DNA of 64,000 nucleotides from a virus (IMGVR_UViG_3300021478_000001:22934-86933); one strand, 5' to 3'; shown: positions 46,840 to 55,600, numbered from the stretch's first letter. Translations and numbers: made by a program. Notes: generated from the sequence alone by a model not told the origin.

Positions 46840-46916
46840 TGGCGGGAGCGACGGGACTCGAACCCGCGACCTTCGGCGTGACAAGCCGATACTCTAACCA
46901 ACTGAGCTACGCTCCC
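46840..46916 (-). tRNA. tRNA-Asp (GUC)
   Basis: GGGAGCG acceptor stem, D arm, TCGGC-TTGTCAC-GCCGA anticodon arm, GGTTCGAGTCC T arm, encoded CCA. Confidence 0.95.
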
Positions 46917-47123
46917 GTTTGGAGGATTATTCTTTCTTCTTCAAGCTTGCTTGTATGCGCACCTTGCGTATCATGTGGTATATTCGTTTTATTATTTCAT
47001 CACGCTTGGCTACATCTAAGTTCGGCGCCATCCGCTGCACAAACTCCCGAGTGTTGTTCATCATCTGCACTTCAGCTTCGGTCGGTGGTCGCCAGCGTTT
47101 GCGCTTGGGTGGCCATTGCGCTT

Positions 47124-47513
47124 TCATTTTTCCCTGAGCCTCATCAAAATCTTGGGACCCACCAGATCTGATGGTGGTTGCGGTACATCTTTTCTGGCCC
47201 ACAGATGCAGGCACGTTGGATGACAGTTGATGTAACGGCTTTTCGGTGGATGAAACTGTACCACAAGTTCTTCCTCGTACCAAAATAAATCTTTGACATA
47301 GCACATTTCTTCCCAGTTGGGACAGCGCCACCCAGATACAGAAACATGCTCCCATCCATTGCTGAATTCATTAGCATCATTGGCCATTATCGCCAGTTCC
47401 ATATTACATGGTCCTAGTATTACGAAGGATCCAAACCTGTCCCCATGAAGACTGGCATAGGCTCCGGTTTGTATGCGACAGAGCTCCAGCTTGAGAGGGT
47501 ATTGCGCGCGCAT
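47124..47513 (-). CDS. conserved phage hypothetical protein
   Basis: WEHVSVS...PNWEEMC.VKDLFW...QFHPPKS.YIN.HP.CLHLW motif common in phages. Confidence 0.7.
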   Translation of the reverse strand: MRAQYPLKLELCRIQTGAYASLHGDRFGSFVILGPCNMELAIMANDANEFSNGWEHVSVSGWRCPNWEEMCYVKDLFWYEEELVVQFHPPKSRYINCHPTCLHLWARKDVPQPPSDLVGPKILMRLREK

Positions 47514-47514
47514 A

Positions 47515-47826
47515 TTACAGATTCTTCAAGAAGGAGTGGGGTCCTACGACTATCGCTATGGGTCCTACCAGATAGTCTTCGGTAATGGATCTACCATAAG
47601 CTACTTCCCAAAATTTTTGCGCATTGGGATTGTAGGGCAAGCCATGTAGCTTACCCTCTTCGTTGCAGAAAGCGATGCAGGACTTGCCATCATACTTCGT
47701 GAAGTAGGGAACTATTTCAATCCAGCCTCCTACGATCTCTTTTAGCTGATCCAGCTGCGGCACTCTGTCCAGCTTCGTTATGTCTATCTTGCCGTCAGGA
47801 TGCATAGCGATCAAGCACTTTTCCAT
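47515..47826 (-). CDS. DUF3846-like protein
   Basis: LKEIVGGWIEIV...CNEEGKLHGLPYN...LVGPI. Confidence 0.75.
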   Translation of the reverse strand: MEKCLIAMHPDGKIDITKLDRVPQLDQLKEIVGGWIEIVPYFTKYDGKSCIAFCNEEGKLHGLPYNPNAQKFWEVAYGRSITEDYLVGPIAIVVGPHSFLKNL

Positions 47827-47829
47827 TTC

Positions 47830-48108
47830 CTAGTCCTCCGGTTGATGGTGTTTGTGCAAAGGGGCAGCACTGGCACAGCCGCGAAAGTGTGCTAGAGGCA
47901 GTGGCGCGTGCAGATCAGCGGTCAAATCTGTCACTGTGCAATGCAGAGCTCGTGCCAGTTCATTGACACGTTTTACGCTTGGTCTTACTCTATCACTCTC
48001 ATAGCTGTGTATTGTTGATGTTGTCAGTTTGAGTGCTGCGGCTAACTCCTTCTGTGTCATTCTACGGTAGTTGCGTATGGCTGCAAGACGACGACCATAA
48101 ATTCTCAT
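47830..48108 (-). CDS. XRE-family HTH transcriptional regulator
   Basis: RLAAIRNYRRMTQKELAAAL....STIHSYESDRVRPS...LARAL; start re-called at 48108 after GGAGAAAGGA (the longer ORF runs into the array). Confidence 0.85.
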   Translation of the reverse strand: MRIYGRRLAAIRNYRRMTQKELAAALKLTTSTIHSYESDRVRPSVKRVNELARALHCTVTDLTADLHAPLPLAHFRGCASAAPLHKHHQPED

Positions 48109-48134
48109 TCCTTTCTCCACTAGTAGAAACTGAT

Positions 48135-49260
48135 AGAACGCTCTTCTGCTTGCGATACTTTCTGTGTGCACGGCTCGCTCTTGCTTGACGATACTTTCTG
48201 TGTACACGGCTCGCTCGTTCATGCCGGTTACGACTCGCTCTTAGATTGCGATACTTTCTTTGGGAACGGCTCGCTCTTGCTTGACGATACTTTCCATGTG
48301 CACGGCTTGCTCGTTATGTTCGGTACTCTCAGGATTTCGGCTTGCTCTTAGTATACGATACTTTCCGGGACTATGGCTCGCTCTTGCTTGACGATACTTT
48401 CGTGAACTCTCGGCTCGCTTCTTGTCGTCGTTACTTTCGCTTTACACGACTCGCTCGCAAGATACAGTACTCTTGTGGTGCGCGGCTCACTCGTGCTTAA
48501 CGATACTTTCGGCATTCTAGGTTCGCTGTGTCTTTTCGATACTCTCCGGGAGGACGGCTCGCTCGTATCGTACGTTACTTTCTATCAGGTCGGCTCACTC
48601 TGGAATTACGATACTGTCGATTCACCCGGTTCACTTATCCGCAACGATACTGTCTACTGACACGGTTCACTCATTATCGTCGATACTTTCTACTGGCTCG
48701 GTTCACTCTCTAGTTACGTTACTTTTTCCAAGAGCTAGGTTTACTCATGATTCGCTACTATCCTAAACGCGGCTCGCTCGGACCTCATGTTACTGTCTCC
48801 TTCAACGGCTCGCTCACCAATGTTGTTACTTTCTTAGGGATCGGCTCGCTCAGGCTCCACGTTACTGTCTCCAGCTTTGGCTCGCTCACAAGATTTTCGC
48901 TCACGATGGCTCGCTCCGCATCGTCGATACTTTCGGAATTCTCGGCTCGCTTCTTGTCGTCGTTACTTTCGGCGAATTCGGCTCGGTTCACTCCACTTCG
49001 ACGTCACTGTCAATAGCCTCGGATCACTCTATTGCTTCGATGCTATCTTGCTATTCGATTCACTCCTCTGTTCAGATACTATTCATGGAAGACGGTTCAC
49101 TCACTCCACCGTGCCGTTACTTTCTGGTTCTTCGGCTCGCTCATGACTCATGTTACTTTCTTGACTTACGGCTCTCTTCAGCTCGCTCACTTTACTCGTT
49201 ACTCTCTGGGACTTCGGCTCGCTCATGACTCATGTTACTTTCTGGACCTTCGGCTGGTCT
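48135..49260 (-). ncRNA. dual-repeat 36-nt array 1 (TIGR-like guide array), about 30 units
   Basis: + strand CGGYTCRCTC-N8-CGWTACTDTC-N8; repeat A at 48171, 48207, 48267, 48303...49215, 49251, with a few indel units. Confidence 0.85.
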
Positions 49261-50167
49261 TCTTAGGCTCCTCTTGTGCTATATTTTCGTTGGCTGTGCG
49301 ATCCCTCCTTTCAATTTCTTCTCCCAGCGGTCCCTTGTAATATGCTTTGGCAAAGCCCGGGAACATGTGAGTATTGGGAATTTCTATTTCATGAGTATGT
49401 CCCATGATGGCAATGGCAAACGGCTTGACAGGAGGTGTGCCATAATGGTCCCAATACATCAAGGCGTGCAAGTGACTGAGAAACATCTTGGCTACATAGT
49501 TGCACGCTTGACTGTCGATGGTGATTGCCGGCAGCTTGCCAGTTTTTAGGAGTGCCATGACTTCAGGTGTCCTTGTCCTAAAAGTTTTGGCCCGCTCGGC
49601 ATTCATGCCGGTTTCATTTTTGTTGACCACATAGTCTTTACGCACTTCATAGATTTGGCGGTAGTAGGCGTTCTTGTCTTTCTGCAGTCTTTTGACACAC
49701 TGCCCGAGGTGCCAGCAGATCTGCCGCAGATCGGCATTGTATGGCCGCTTCTGTCCTTTCTCCCATACCATATCAGGATTTAATCCAGCGAATGACCAGA
49801 AGTGTCCGGCGGTTGGTGCCTTGGTTATATCCAAGTGTGCCAGCAATCCTGATGTGATGACAGGACCTATGCCATCATTAGATTGGCACCAACGCCCGAG
49901 TTGAGTGCTGTCGGCATACACCTGGAGTCCTTTCATAATTTCAGATTCAATGACAGCGAATGAATCTGCTGATTTGTTTAACAACATTGGTAGAATTGGA
50001 GCTCCATCCTTTTCTCCTAGATGACGCAATTGCATATCATTGCGCTTGCGCATTTCCTGTGCGGTGTAGTAATTAGCAACCAAGAATCTAGCTTCTGGAT
50101 TGCTAAGGTTGGCCGCTTGCAATACTACTTCTTTGCCGAAACGTGGAACTAGGCTAGCTCTTTTCAT
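49235..50167 (-). CDS. IS110/Nop-domain RNA-binding protein lacking RuvC (TasA-like)
   Basis: Coiled coil, then GIGPVITSGLLA and FWSFAGLNP (Transposase_20/Nop region); no DEDD RuvC domain; AGGAG RBS before MKRAS; flanked by arrays on both sides. Confidence 0.8.
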   Translation of the reverse strand: MKRASLVPRFGKEVVLQAANLSNPEARFLVANYYTAQEMRKRNDMQLRHLGEKDGAPILPMLLNKSADSFAVIESEIMKGLQVYADSTQLGRWCQSNDGIGPVITSGLLAHLDITKAPTAGHFWSFAGLNPDMVWEKGQKRPYNADLRQICWHLGQCVKRLQKDKNAYYRQIYEVRKDYVVNKNETGMNAERAKTFRTRTPEVMALLKTGKLPAITIDSQACNYVAKMFLSHLHALMYWDHYGTPPVKPFAIAIMGHTHEIEIPNTHMFPGFAKAYYKGPLGEEIERRDRTANENIAQEEPKKTSRRSRK

Positions 50168-50183
50168 AGTACACTCCTGTTGA

Positions 50184-50818
50184 CGGTACACTCATTAACG
50201 GTTCACTCTTGTGCTGCGATATTATCAATGATCTCGGATCACTCCCTTGCGACGATACTATCAATTGGACTCGGTTCACTCTTGGACTACGATACTCTCG
50301 ATGCGTGCGGTTCACTCTAGGACCGCGATACTTTCTATCACTACGGCTCACTCTGCGTTGTCGGTACACTTCATAGTCACGGTTCACTCTTGTCTTTCCG
50401 ATACTATCATGAAAGACGGTTCACTCAACTTCGACGATACATTCTGCCGTTCCGGTTCACTCCCAAATTACGATACTATCATTAGAGACGGTTCACTCTT
50501 TGATAACAATACTGTCTGCGCGTATGGTTCACTCCGTGATTGCGATACTGTCGGACAGATTGGTTCACTCTTGGATAACGATACTGTCAGCTGACACAGT
50601 TCACTCATGTGTTGCGGTACTTTCTGCCCAAAGCGGTTCGCTCATATTCTACGATACCTTCCACACTTGCGGCTCGCTCTTGTTTTACGATACTTTCATG
50701 AACAACGGCTCGCTCCTTTAACACGATACTTTCCAGACTTTACGGCTCGCTTACCACGATACTTTGACGTACCGGCTCGCTCTTGTGATACGTTACTTTC
50801 TGAGCTTATGACTCGCTA
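50184..50818 (-). ncRNA. dual-repeat 36-nt array 2, about 17 units
   Basis: Repeat A at 50199, 50235, 50272, 50308...50773, 50809, alternating with repeat B. Confidence 0.85.
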
Positions 50819-51094
50819 GTGCAGAGTCATCTTGATAGGTTGCCACCATTGTTGTGTTTCATAGCAGTAGAATTTCAAACTATCTACTGCTCGCTTGGTG
50901 ACAAACAACGGAATCATATCACGATGTCTGCATGTCGGCTTGTTAGCAGCGAAGCACTCACAGTGGAGACGTCCTCGGCTGTAGCGGATGTTGTAGACTT
51001 CTTGGACATTGAGAAGGAAGTCAAACTTCACCATACGATAACCGCCGGGAGTTCTTTTAAGATTATATACGCTCTCAGTTCCCGATACTTTCAT
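50816..51094 (-). CDS. SWIM-type zinc-finger protein
   Basis: Y.I......LHCECFAANKPTCRH (CxC-x6-CxH). Confidence 0.7.
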   Translation of the reverse strand: MKVSGTESVYNLKRTPGGYRMVKFDFLLNVQEVYNIRYSRGRLHCECFAANKPTCRHRDMIPLFVTKRAVDSLKFYCYETQQWWQPIKMTLH

Positions 51095-51721
51095 TTTGTA
51101 CGGCTCGCTCGATCTCTACGATACTTTCGGAGCCAACGGCTCGCTCTTCGAGAGTGATACTTTCAAACCTCTCGGCTCGCTCCAGACTTACAGTACTCTC
51201 CACACTCGCGGCTCGCTCTGTATTCGCGATACTATCTTAGTCACCGGCTCACTCTGTCACTGCGATACTGACGAAACAAACGGCTCGCTCCGGTCTGTCG
51301 ATACAATCGTTCGTACCGGCTCGCTTTGTGCACACGATACTATCTGAGCACACGGCTCACTCTACCACCACGATACTTTCTTAGGAGTCGGCTCGCTTCG
51401 GTCTTACAGTACTCTCCGCACTCGCGGCTCGCTCGTCTACAACGGTACTATCAAGGTAGGCGGCTCGCTCACCACAAATACGATAACTTTCATCTTACGC
51501 GGCTCACTCCTAAGTTTCGGTACTCTCATTAGGTGCCGGTTCACTCCTAAGAGACGATACTTTCCTTTTTCACGGTTCACTCTTTTCCAACAATACTATC
51601 ATACTGCGTGGTTCACTCTGTTCCTACAGTACTCTCATGATGAGCGGTTCACTCTTAAGTAACGATACTTTCCCTTTTTACGGTTCACTCTCAGAAGGCG
51701 GTACTCTCATGACGAACGGTT
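51070..51721 (-). ncRNA. dual-repeat 36-nt array 3, about 18 units
   Basis: Repeat A at 51101, 51137, 51173...51461, 51500, 51537...51681, 51717; near-perfect 36-nt phase. Confidence 0.85.
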
Positions 51722-52411
51722 TTATTCCCAGATGCGATTTAGATTCTGCACTACAACATCATCACGTGATAGTTGCTTTAGATGTTCTATGAAATTTCCC
51801 ATTATATCTTCTTTGCTTTCAATTTTATCATCAAACACATGACGCATAAGTTGACGATAATACTCGCCCATGATTTTAAAATTCATTGGCGTGACAGTAG
51901 GATCTGATGCCCAATCTATTCCTCCATTTCTGGGTACCAACGCATAACGACTAATCTGTTTTGGTTCTATGGTGGCATAGTAGCAAACTGTCCCCATATA
52001 TTCAATGCTTTTTTCCCACATATGGCTAAAGTCAGAAAGCGCGCGCTTGCGAAACCATATCACGCGCTCTTTCATGTTGTTCTTCCATCTGGGTAGTTCA
52101 TTGCCCATGTGGTCCTGTACATTTATTCCTTCTTCGTAGTGGCGCGTGGCTTGCTCCAGAAAGTCTTCATCTGGTGCCAGCCGATAGCGCTTGAGATCAT
52201 TAGTATTGGTTTCCAGCACAACCATCCGTTCGCCTCCTTGACAGGCGTTTGATGCGAAGTACAACGCATAGGTCGTTGTCAAGTATACTGCACGGGCATT
52301 GCTGCTGACAGTGTGTTTCCAGTTATCAATGCCAATTTTGCCACGCGGCTTTATTCCTTCTTTTAGGATGGCTTCCAAGTGGCGTTCAGCAGTACCGTGG
52401 TATATCCTCAC
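51722..52411 (-). CDS. ADP-ribosyltransferase-fold protein (Tpt1/KptA-like motif pattern)
   Basis: IYHGT...ILKEGIKP...AVYLTT..A..FA.......VVLE. Confidence 0.6.
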   Translation of the reverse strand: MRIYHGTAERHLEAILKEGIKPRGKIGIDNWKHTVSSNARAVYLTTTYALYFASNACQGGERMVVLETNTNDLKRYRLAPDEDFLEQATRHYEEGINVQDHMGNELPRWKNNMKERVIWFRKRALSDFSHMWEKSIEYMGTVCYYATIEPKQISRYALVPRNGGIDWASDPTVTPMNFKIMGEYYRQLMRHVFDDKIESKEDIMGNFIEHLKQLSRDDVVVQNLNRIWE

Positions 52412-52617
52412 TGTTCATTCTCCCTTTTAAGAATATCCCTAGCGTATTTAAGGGGAATTTCTAAGGCTCTTGATAGTTTGATTGCCTCAGAATTTTCAGC
52501 TCTGTATTGCCGCATTCGTGCATTGTACTTAGCACGCTGTTCTGGAGTTCGGTTCCTTTTTTGCCGCGCCACTGTATTTTGTTTGCATAGTAGTATGCGC
52601 GAAAGTATGGACGGCGG

Positions 52618-55600
52618 TCAGTCTTCATCACTTTCAGGACCGATGTACTTGTGGAACGTATCATCATCCATGCCAGTCATAAGAATTTCACGTTGCGCAG
52701 CTGTCAGCTCTGGCAATGCATTCTGTATTAGTGAACCAGTATTGCGCCACAGTTGATAGCGACGATACTGATCTTCTGTCAATTCAATGCTGGCACCTGT
52801 GCCCGCTTTGGCCCAAGTGGGCGGCGTGACTTTGACTAACCAGCCGCGTTCGGTTCTGGTTTCTTTGTACGTGGGTCCCATTTTCAACACGTCTATTGGT
52901 CGTATCATGATTCTCTCCATGAAGGTAGATTGTCGATTATCTGGCGTTGTCCAGGAGTAGCTTGACTGCGCAAGCCTTGAAGTTCTATGACCACACGAGC
53001 ATAAGGCGCGTAGAGCATGTCAATGCGATCTTGCGGCCACGTAGGGTCCGCCTTTTCTTTGAAGTCTGTAAGCTTGCGCCGTGCTTCACGTATTAGTTCA
53101 TCAATGTCTTTCATATATCCTCCTGTTGCAGATAGAGTTGAGTTTTGGTGATGCTGGCTAGTCTGGCTAGAGCTTCCTCCTTAGGCATCCAGCGCGACCG
53201 TGCTTCCCAGTTATCTTGTATCCTTCCTTTTTCTCCATTGGGATAGCCATGTTCTGCTATTCGATATTGCACTTGCCATAGTCCATTGGACTTGCAGACG
53301 ATGCGGAACTTGGAATTATCCTTGCTGTAGAATGGACGTGATATGGTCATCTTCTATGCCTCCTTCCATAACGGCAGCGCCAGAATGCGTGATGATGCCG
53401 CGTGAATTCAACTTTCCAGCCACCTTCACGTTCACATACGTTTTCATGTTTGCGACGAGGAGGCTCTTCAACATTTTCTTGCTCTCTCTTTGGTGCAGCT
53501 TCTTTCTTTGGTGATGTTATTTTCTGCACTGCTATTTTGCGCGGTGGTAATTCCTGTGCCGGTGCTTCAAGATTATTAAAGGCTGAGATTATATTTTCTG
53601 TTGCTACCTTGTCTCCTTTGTCGACTGTGACTAGTTTGCTCGGTGTCCGTGTACTCAAGTAACTGCACAAGTAGACCACTGGACCAGCAAGCAATAACGC
53701 TAGCAACATTGCGGCCATCTTGGGCGGTGACATTTTATTTCTCCATGAAGACTATGGTGGCTAACACACTCGCAGGCTTTATTCTTTGATCCTCTTCAAT
53801 GCTGGCCAAAAATTTATTCAGCTTTTGGATCAGCATTTCCCTGGTCAAGGGAGTAGGACTTGTGTGTTCTTCTACGGAGTCAGCGAAGTAGACATTGCAT
53901 TCCAGTTGATAGTGTTGCATCACACTTTTTTCTCCCCTCTATTGGCCGAAGATTTTGAATAACAACACCAACGATAGCATTAGTCCTGCCATACATAGCG
54001 CAGTGATACGGTTGGACTTGAACAGTTCAATTAGAACTAGTAGTTCTCTGTTGTTGGTTGCGCGCGCATGCTGCTCCCATGCATATATATCAGCCATGTA
54101 GAATTTCCACAATTTATTCATTCCCCCTTTCCTCTCTTGTCTGCATCGTGCACTGCCAGCATGAGTGTTGTGAGATCATGGCGGCTGAGTCGCCGCAAGG
54201 TTTTCAGTTCAGCAGTTGGTTCACTAGTGCGCCGGACCCACTCGCGGATATCCTCAGCCATATCCTCTTTGCGATCTTTCGGTTGCCAATGCGGTGTCAT
54301 AGCCCATCCTCTAAGATTTGCTTTTCTGTTCGAGCGTTTGGGATATCTTTGCTGCCTACAGCACGATAAGCATACATCCAATTATCACCTTCCCAATTGG
54401 TGCTTGGTTGCATGCGCCGCTCTATAATTTCAAACCACGCCCAAGAACAATCTAGAAGTTGGACTGGACGCCAAGCAAACCAATGATGCCACCGCCATCT
54501 GCTAGGTTTATCTAGCGGATGTTTGAGGAAGAAATCAGGCGGCACTGTCAGTTTCATTTTATCCCTCCCCTATAGTAGGTCCCATTCGACACATGCTTCA
54601 TGTGCTGCTTCGCCTGGTAACAATCCCATTTTCATTCCACCAGTAAACCATTGCAGCCATTCGTGCACAAGGCCATTTTTCTCTGCGATCTTGTAATACT
54701 TCCAAACAACATCCATTGTTTTATCATCCAATGCTGTTCCTCTACCTTGTGGCATTTTCATCCCTTCACTTTTAGCCAGCGGCCATCCGCTTGTTTCTTT
54801 TTTGTGCATTTCTTCCCATTCTTTTTCTAATTCTTCTTTTGTAGTGACCGGAACTTTAGCAATTCTTTGATACATCTGTGTATCTTCTACCCATTGTTCT
54901 TTTCTTATTGCCATGTCATCCCTCCACCTTCAGCCAGCGACCATCCACTTGCTTTTCATATTTCTGGCCATAGCCAGTTCCCAGCATGCCTATGCCATGT
55001 TGTTTCCATGACACTTCACTCATGTTGGCCCATGGTCCCATTTTAGTTTTGGCGTCATACATGACTTTACCATCGTAAGGTAAACCGAAGTCATCTTTAT
55101 CGCCAAGATGTCCTACCCAATAAGTCATTGTTACCTCCTGAGTTCTCGTGGTTGATATAGTTCAAGTATGTTGATTGCGCTATGCCCTGGATCGAACTCC
55201 TCGAACCAGACTTTGTCCCATTCTTTGATGCCATAAGCTTCGGCAATCATCTTCACTGCCTCGACAGATGGCAGCTTGCCGGGCTGATCGACCGATATTG
55301 AAAGATGGCGGCAGAATCCGGCTGGTTGTTCCTCGATGCTGATTGACGCGCGGTAGCCAATAGGTATCAGCAGGTGCTCGCTTGGTGGACGCTCGAAGCC
55401 CGGTTTGCGGTCGATAAGTTTTAAATGCTTTACCTCCTCGCGGAGCGCACCTTCGCGCAACACACTGAATGGAATCGGTTTAGCTTCGGCGCGTGCAACT
55501 GCCGCTGCGATCTGGGCGCGGATTTCACTAGTAATGATTAGCGCCCTCATATTCATCTCCATGGGTCAGGGCTGTCAGCAAGATCATCATTGAACTCGCC

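Follow-up and report, generated by a model that had tools for sequence, protein, structure and literature searches.

Several described TIGR-Tas systems resemble the locus analysed in the present study. SpTIGR-TasH of Salicola phage CGphi29 (PMC12045711; PMC13421893; PDB 9w03, 9w04 and 21kl) is phage-borne and dual-repeat, with 36-nt units whose two 8-nt spacers make up a 16-nt guide, an arrangement of 8+8 = 16 nt already documented for SpTIGR (PMC12045711), and its protein SpTasH has an N-terminal HNH nuclease and cuts both DNA strands. The TIGR-TasA systems of FpTasA (Flavonifractor plautii; PMC12045711) and MbTasA (bioRxiv 10.64898/2026.09.09.750476) have a solo Nop-domain protein, dual-repeat arrays on both sides of it and no accessory genes. 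FpTIGR spacers are 9 nt long (PMC12045711), and MbTasA has been shown to repress transcription, TasA proteins being RNA-guided transcriptional repressors (bioRxiv 10.64898/2026.09.09.750476). TaTasR of a Thermoproteota archaeon (PDB 9mty) combines a Nop plus coiled-coil dimer fold with an active RuvC domain and 9+9-nt spacers. According to both main TIGR-Tas papers, the short spacers and metagenomic origin of these systems prevent the assignment of natural targets. Here we describe a TIGR-TasA locus at positions 48135-51721 of a 64,000-nt stretch of a virus contig (IMGVR_UViG_3300021478_000001:22934-86933; 'the window' refers to this whole stretch), which contains three guide arrays, lying on both sides of a tasA gene, and a 92-residue ORF (open reading frame). 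The locus belongs to the TIGR-TasA family, as a large but otherwise ordinary dual-repeat member carried by a soil phage, and we consider it probable that it is a working system, with guides most likely aimed at foreign DNA.

The locus shares with SpTIGR-TasH its phage-borne, dual-repeat arrays of 36-nt units with 8+8 spacers and a 16-nt guide, and with the FpTasA and MbTasA systems the solo Nop-domain protein, the dual-repeat arrays on both sides and the lack of accessory genes. Its spacers are 8 nt long compared with 9 nt in FpTIGR, and it holds approximately 65 units in three arrays, whereas 5-15 units have been published as commonest for dual-repeat TIGR-TasA.

Architecture of the guide arrays

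Tandem Repeats Finder detected a period of 36 nt (also 72 and 108) over 48147-51691. On the plus strand the unit reads C-GATACTnTC, 8 variable nt, C-GGyTCrCTC and 8 further variable nt, that is, two alternating 10-nt repeats and two 8-nt spacers in every 36-nt unit. Column statistics were obtained from 99 half-units lying exactly 18 nt apart (45 loop-to-edge and 54 edge-to-loop, the two repeats being named as explained below). Columns 9-16 after each 9-nt core held 0.02-0.59 bits, and the cores together with the single C preceding each core held 0.9-2.0 bits, the variable or covarying core columns being column 6 of the loop repeat and columns 2/5 of the edge repeat. A chain parse gave 61, 34 and 35 repeats (~130) in the three arrays. 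In the correct phase these made up 63 units, of which 48 were exactly 8+8 and 15 were irregular, with spacers of 0-14 nt. The original prediction had put the variable segments at 8 nt, and both the column statistics and the 48 exact units bear this out. The features of the locus, listed in the order of the RNA sense, are as follows.

51066..51721, minus strand: TIGR array 3, first in the RNA sense; ~18 units of edge GAGYGARCCG, spacer A (8 nt), loop GANAGTATCG and spacer B (8 nt)
50816..51094, minus strand: 92-residue ORF between arrays 3 and 2, with a CxC-x9-CxH (SWIM-like zinc-finger) motif, HCECFAANKPTCRH
50184..50818, minus strand: TIGR array 2; ~17 units; its 3' end adjoins the tasA ribosome-binding site
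49235..50167, minus strand: tasA, a 310-residue nuclease-less Tas protein (Nop/IS110-type RNA-binding domain plus coiled coil), assigned from sequence and fold
48135..49259, minus strand: TIGR array 1; ~30 units; its 3' end adjoins an HTH (helix-turn-helix) gene

All three arrays start and end in truncated edge repeats, matching the published pattern, and truncated copies of GAGYGARCCG were read directly at 51717-51724, 51066-51074, 49251-49259 and 48135-48143. The final 8 codons of tasA (49235-49259) are encoded within the first half-unit of array 1, and the stop codon of the 92-residue ORF lies inside the first edge repeat of array 2, showing that guide units extend into coding sequence. Such overlap is less frequent for dual-repeat arrays (2026 preprint, bioRxiv 10.64898/2026.09.09.750476), and the array that begins inside the tasA end distinguishes this locus from the FpTasA and MbTasA systems. 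Array 1 also contains duplicated guide families, with spacer B being TCAAGCAA in three units, TGAGTCAT in two and ACGACAAG in two. Other long arrays occur in the TasA clade, with ~70 units in locus L010 (7376-9965) and ~45 in locus L196 (10741-12331); the edge and loop repeats of L010 are nearly alike (GAGCGAGCCA and GAGTGAACCA). Terminator-like and promoter-like sites at the locus showed no excess over shuffles, and an Rfam scan of 47000-53000 detected no family.

CRISPR arrays likewise consist of repeats and variable guide segments that are processed to small guide RNAs. CRISPR-Cas loci are, however, defined by a single 25-36-nt repeat, spacers of similar size and cas genes, whereas the present locus has two 10-nt repeats, 8-nt spacers and no cas or adaptation genes. 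By analogy with the described Tas systems, the guide here would also differ from a CRISPR guide in being split over both DNA strands, and no protospacer-adjacent motif is known.

TasA is a Tas protein without a nuclease domain

The listed ORF of tasA starts at a GTG (50191), and the likely start is the ATG at 50167, which has AGGAG upstream. TasA matched Transposase_20 in Pfam (PF02371, E 8e-5) and a 'transposase' family in PHROGs (E 7e-31). Among solved structures, phmmer retrieved SpTasH (21kl and others, E 3e-8) and TasR (9mty, E 7e-6), with residue 67 of TasA aligned to residue 110 of TasH. An AlphaFold model built with 30 homologues (predicted local distance difference test score 85) was all-helical from residue 20. 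In a Foldseek search with this model, the top ten matches were all TasH or TasR chains (probability 1.0, target-normalised template-modelling score 0.51-0.69), followed by IS110/IS621 recombinases. SpTasH is thus the best match in both sequence and fold, at an aligned identity of only ~16-17%, and TaTasR has the same Nop plus coiled-coil dimer fold as TasA.

No HNH or RuvC nuclease domain was detected in TasA in Pfam, PHROGs or the AlphaFold model. The TasH match sets in at TasH residue 110, and helices make up the whole model from residue 20 onward; we conclude that TasA has neither an HNH nor a RuvC domain, for which it also has no room. In contrast with SpTasH, it lacks the first ~45 residues' worth of the HNH domain and has no nuclease fold; it differs likewise from TaTasR, in which RuvC is active. 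The gene is intact and conserved, with at least 533 homologues. In the self-processing Tas proteins of dual-repeat systems, the Nop domain has a lengthened C-terminal loop that bears a conserved Tyr/His dyad. Near its C-terminus TasA has a loop of ~27 residues (around 247-279) modelled at low confidence, with low-confidence strands at 260-267.

Strand, phase and site geometry

Read on the strand that encodes tasA, the repeats have the form GAnnGnnnC(G/A) in ten IMG/VR loci and in most of the 80 array-bearing loci from metagenomes; all such repeats share it in 60-odd related loci, and one of the two repeats in related loci is usually GAGCGAGCC(G/A). In TIGR-Tas systems the edge and loop repeats have their terminal bases, which resemble boxes D and C, in common. 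Both kinds of repeat in the window read GA....C(C/U)G, compared with UG...CCA in TaTasR. The form of the tasA-strand repeats in the related loci indicates that the RNA sense in the window is the minus strand.

The hallmark of an edge repeat is an extra base pair backed by covariation (PMC12045711). At edge positions 4/7, the copies in the window show C-G 32 times, U-A 22 times and U-G 6 times; these positions pair in 60/65 repeats in the minus sense compared with 56/65 in the plus sense. Across loci, positions 3-8 and 4-7 covary (GAGCGAGCC compared with GAATGAATC). The covariation and the truncated copies at the array ends identify GAGYGARCCG as the edge repeat, and the unit is therefore edge-A-loop (GANAGTATCG)-B-edge.

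In this family the two spacers of a guide base-pair with neighbouring positions on opposite DNA strands, A on one and B on the other (PMC12045711). Faure et al. reported that the cut falls on the 5' side of the nucleotide that pairs with spacer base 5, and that 8-nt 3' overhangs result (PMC12045711). When both possible arrangements were worked through against this published overhang and cut geometry, only one fitted, namely a 16-bp site whose top strand is A + revcomp(B), revcomp(B) being the reverse complement of B. The targeting geometry and the covariation-backed edge base pair applied here both derive from TaTasR. By this analogy, the split 8+8 reading of a 16-bp site on two strands is correct, and it is not new, as SpTasH provides a precedent. 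The original prediction had left the order, orientation and repeat phase of the spacers open, and these are now reduced to one configuration: RNA on the minus strand, edge-A-loop-B-edge, and A + revcomp(B).

The mechanism that we propose is as follows. The three arrays and tasA would be transcribed together, with the minus strand as the RNA sense. Cuts inside the edge repeats, probably made, by analogy with the described Tas proteins, by the C-terminal loop of TasA itself, would then release 36-nt tigRNAs from this transcript. A TasA dimer would hold each tigRNA, whose two 8-nt spacers would pair with opposite strands of a contiguous 16-bp site, A with one and B with the other; the same analogy predicts A + revcomp(B) as the top strand of this site. 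Because TasA has no nuclease domain, binding should block rather than cut, as would also be expected from the repression shown for MbTasA, and would thereby stop transcription or replication. The targets would lie in foreign DNA absent from the sequence searched, belonging to rival phages, to other mobile elements or to the host; this step is reached by elimination.

Searches for target sites

We built candidate sites for two phases, four order and orientation classes, and gaps of 0-2 (24 configurations), and used shuffled A/B partners as the control. In the phage's own genome, no configuration gave an exact match and none gave more than two one-mismatch matches, compared with 0-0.25 in the shuffles; with the arrays masked, one-mismatch matches were at the shuffle level. 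The canonical configuration gave no exact match, no one-mismatch match and one two-mismatch match. Array junctions were considered as candidate targets and rejected, because the unmasked genome matched only two degenerate short units. Recoded copies of the phage's own genes were rejected likewise (no match at 0-1 mismatch and one at two mismatches in the canonical configuration). The own genome is excluded as the target on these observations, and the idea that it is targeted is close to refuted.

Related sequence was searched in the same way. Twelve TasA loci together with the own genome showed no enrichment over shuffles, and five complete TasA-less relatives (354 kb) contained no targets. 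When 440 canonical guides pooled from 42 loci were compared with 2.2 Mb, exact matches numbered 0/1/1 for gaps 0/1/2, compared with 1/2/0 in the wrong phase. The 76 loci around capsid homologues (835 kb) gave two one-mismatch matches, compared with 0.5 in the shuffles. One, at L050:5790, lies in a homologue of the prohead protease, a gene whose copy in this phage has 5 mismatches to the guide site, and the other, at L077:5253, lies inside a homologue of the capsid paralogue. An exact IMG/VR scan with the L050-type guide gave 11 scattered matches in unrelated contigs, and we therefore rejected both one-mismatch matches as chance. Such exact IMG/VR scans cover 4/48 canonical sites, three of which gave 11, 13 and 9 matches (chance level) and the fourth, that of unit 48172, at least 120. 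One site was also compared with 401 Pseudomonadota genomes, with no match among those searched.

The original prediction, that each unit specifies an 8+8 site on opposite strands, thus holds for the form of the site, given a dual-repeat TIGR-TasA locus and the published 8+8 spacers of SpTIGR. It gained no support as regards the location of the targets: no search supported sites in the phage's own genome, a rival phage, a plasmid or the host, and there was no enrichment over shuffled spacer pairs in the own genome, in 1.2 Mb of related phages, in the five TasA-less relatives or in the pooled 2.2 Mb, the outcome that the prediction itself had named as refuting. Because the search sets left out the host and co-occurring mobile elements, this null result does not refute the 16-bp reading.

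Alternative explanations

The abundance of matches to unit 48172 (A = TGTACACA, B = TCAAGCAA) raised the question of whether this guide silences phrog_644 (N-terminus MAITQAMCTSFK), a conserved gene of the virion module of rival phages, by binding its codons 4-9. Exact IMG/VR matches to the canonical site of this guide number at least 120, compared with 9, 11 and 13 for the other three sites. Nearly all of the matches listed occupy one position in homologous ~145-residue genes, 11 nt past the start codon; the flanks of the matching sites are diverged and the G+C content of the contigs ranges over 33-54%. The gene is located between virion structural and tail fibre genes, a site at a gene's 5' end suits a repressor, and spacer B of this unit occurs three times in array 1. 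Cultured carriers of phrog_644 are mostly phages of Alphaproteobacteria, and the sole bacterial relative of the phage's capsid gene is a Bradyrhizobium prophage. These carriers are, however, mostly aquatic (infecting Pelagibacter, Roseobacter and Caulobacter) and the present phage is from soil; none of the 80 matching contigs listed shares a sample number with its soil relatives, and no phrog_644 homologue was found in this phage or its relatives. Moreover, with at least 600 pattern matches the family is so large that any codon variant of it is an abundant 16-mer, and the exact site occurs in only 3/49 members picked by protein similarity, among 29 codon variants. The sister guides would encode QATCA or QAECV, although M7, C8 and T9 are invariant in phrog_644; one sister site was scanned and gave 9 scattered matches, none in phrog_644, and no other guide matches the 120 loci (1.03 Mb). 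By a rough estimate, the chance of meeting such an abundant 16-mer is 1-3% per guide, and four guides were scanned. We therefore rate the match as a coincidence with an abundant 16-mer, and keep it as a lead that is unlikely to prove real. Bradyrhizobium sp. SRL28 contains no exact match to the unit-48172 site and one match with one mismatch, and the phrog_644 gene of Pelagibacter phage HTVC027P lacks the motif. As a separate observation, the phrog_644 protein (~145 residues, function unassigned), encoded in the virion modules of very many aquatic phages, has a strikingly invariant N-terminus, MA(I/N)(T/S)QAMCTSFK, with a cysteine at position 8 (loci L202-L321 and L344-L423).

A different view is that the array is largely evolutionary baggage, whose units multiply by unequal recombination and drift, most spacer pairs having no present-day target. 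In its favour, 15/63 units are irregular, near-duplicate spacer pairs number 9 compared with 2.0 expected, and no targets were found in any set searched. Strains also differ mainly by the loss or duplication of whole units: a variant strain, from three other soil runs, differs from the window in this way over 48138-49234 and 51099-51280 (37, 36 and 101 nt skipped and 73 nt repeated). It has an extra unit at 51269-51280 and an intact loop repeat where the window carries a 12-nt deletion (48224) that destroys it. Yet 48 units retain exact 8+8 spacing and intact repeats across 3.6 kb of a compact genome, beside an intact and conserved tasA. Of the 16 array substitutions between strains, 12 fall in repeats and 4 in spacers, implying that spacers are not drifting faster than repeats. 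We think it improbable that much of the array is baggage of this kind. The idea that the guides regulate the phage's own genes, with TasA as a programmable repressor of its own promoters or gene starts, is less probable still. TasA represses transcription in reporter assays (bioRxiv 10.64898/2026.09.09.750476), and the locus lies among small early-type genes and adjoins an XRE-type regulator. The 24 configurations, however, gave no exact match in the own genome with the arrays masked or unmasked, two degenerate short units aside, and one-mismatch matches were at the shuffle level. The absence of self-targets argues against self-regulation and for foreign targets.

Several points nevertheless weigh against a working system aimed at foreign DNA, which we still regard as the probable explanation. 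No target was found in the sets searched, and the foreign-DNA step is an argument by elimination. The public runs holding the stretch include none on record as RNA, and transcription and processing are accordingly proposed only. The irregular units (15/63), together with duplicate guides with diverged halves, suggest that part of the array may be inactive. The spacers are AT-rich, with a G+C content of 44% (A) and 38% (B), and their first base is U in 22/48 A and 31/48 B units; both features suggest that the effective specificity may be less than 16 bp. Across the family, G is avoided (13-14%) and U favoured (35%) at the first spacer base. Finally, H265 and H267, which are family-invariant and lie in the low-confidence C-terminal loop, are no more than candidates for the processing Tyr/His dyad and for a counterpart of the catalytic His of SpTasH.

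In the comparison of strains we also observed that the 3' end of tasA (49234-49584) carries 17 substitutions in 350 nt relative to the variant strain, and the next 1.5 kb carries 6. This hot spot may mark recombination.

Phage genome and setting

The virus contig is 86,933 bp long, with a terminal overlap of 127 bp and a G+C content of 46.9%, and was detected in several soil metagenomes; it is probably a complete 86.9-kb soil-phage genome. A BLAST search of cultured phages with the window gave no match. The 76 related phages that share its capsid gene (43-78% identity; loci L014-L089), and the Bradyrhizobium prophage (L121) that is the sole bacterial relative of this gene, have a G+C content of 50-66%, compared with 46.9% here (G000).

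Two further features lie downstream of the arrays.

47830..48108, minus strand: XRE-type HTH gene, directly downstream of array 1
46840-46916, minus strand: tRNA-Asp (GTC) gene, on the strand of the TIGR locus and ~1.2 kb beyond its downstream end

The listed ORF of the HTH gene runs to 48222 and extends into array 1, and Met39 is its likely start. The other neighbours of the locus are DUF3846, DUF7694 and unknown genes, with small early-type genes around. A homologue of the 92-residue ORF (51% identity) is located directly upstream of tasA in metagenome locus L143, and the ORF may encode an accessory protein of some TIGR-TasA loci.

Implications

The TIGR-TasA family was described in 2025, and the present locus is an ordinary, if large, member of it. 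Its 48 well-formed guides, carried in a probably complete phage genome, allowed a clean test of self-targeting, which was negative. Should the match of unit 48172 to phrog_644 prove true, it would be among the first natural targets for a TIGR-TasA guide, and it would mean that phages use such systems to silence one another's structural genes at their 5' ends. For the TasA clade as a whole, strand, phase and site geometry are now fixed from covariation, and later searches for targets need to consider one configuration rather than a dozen.

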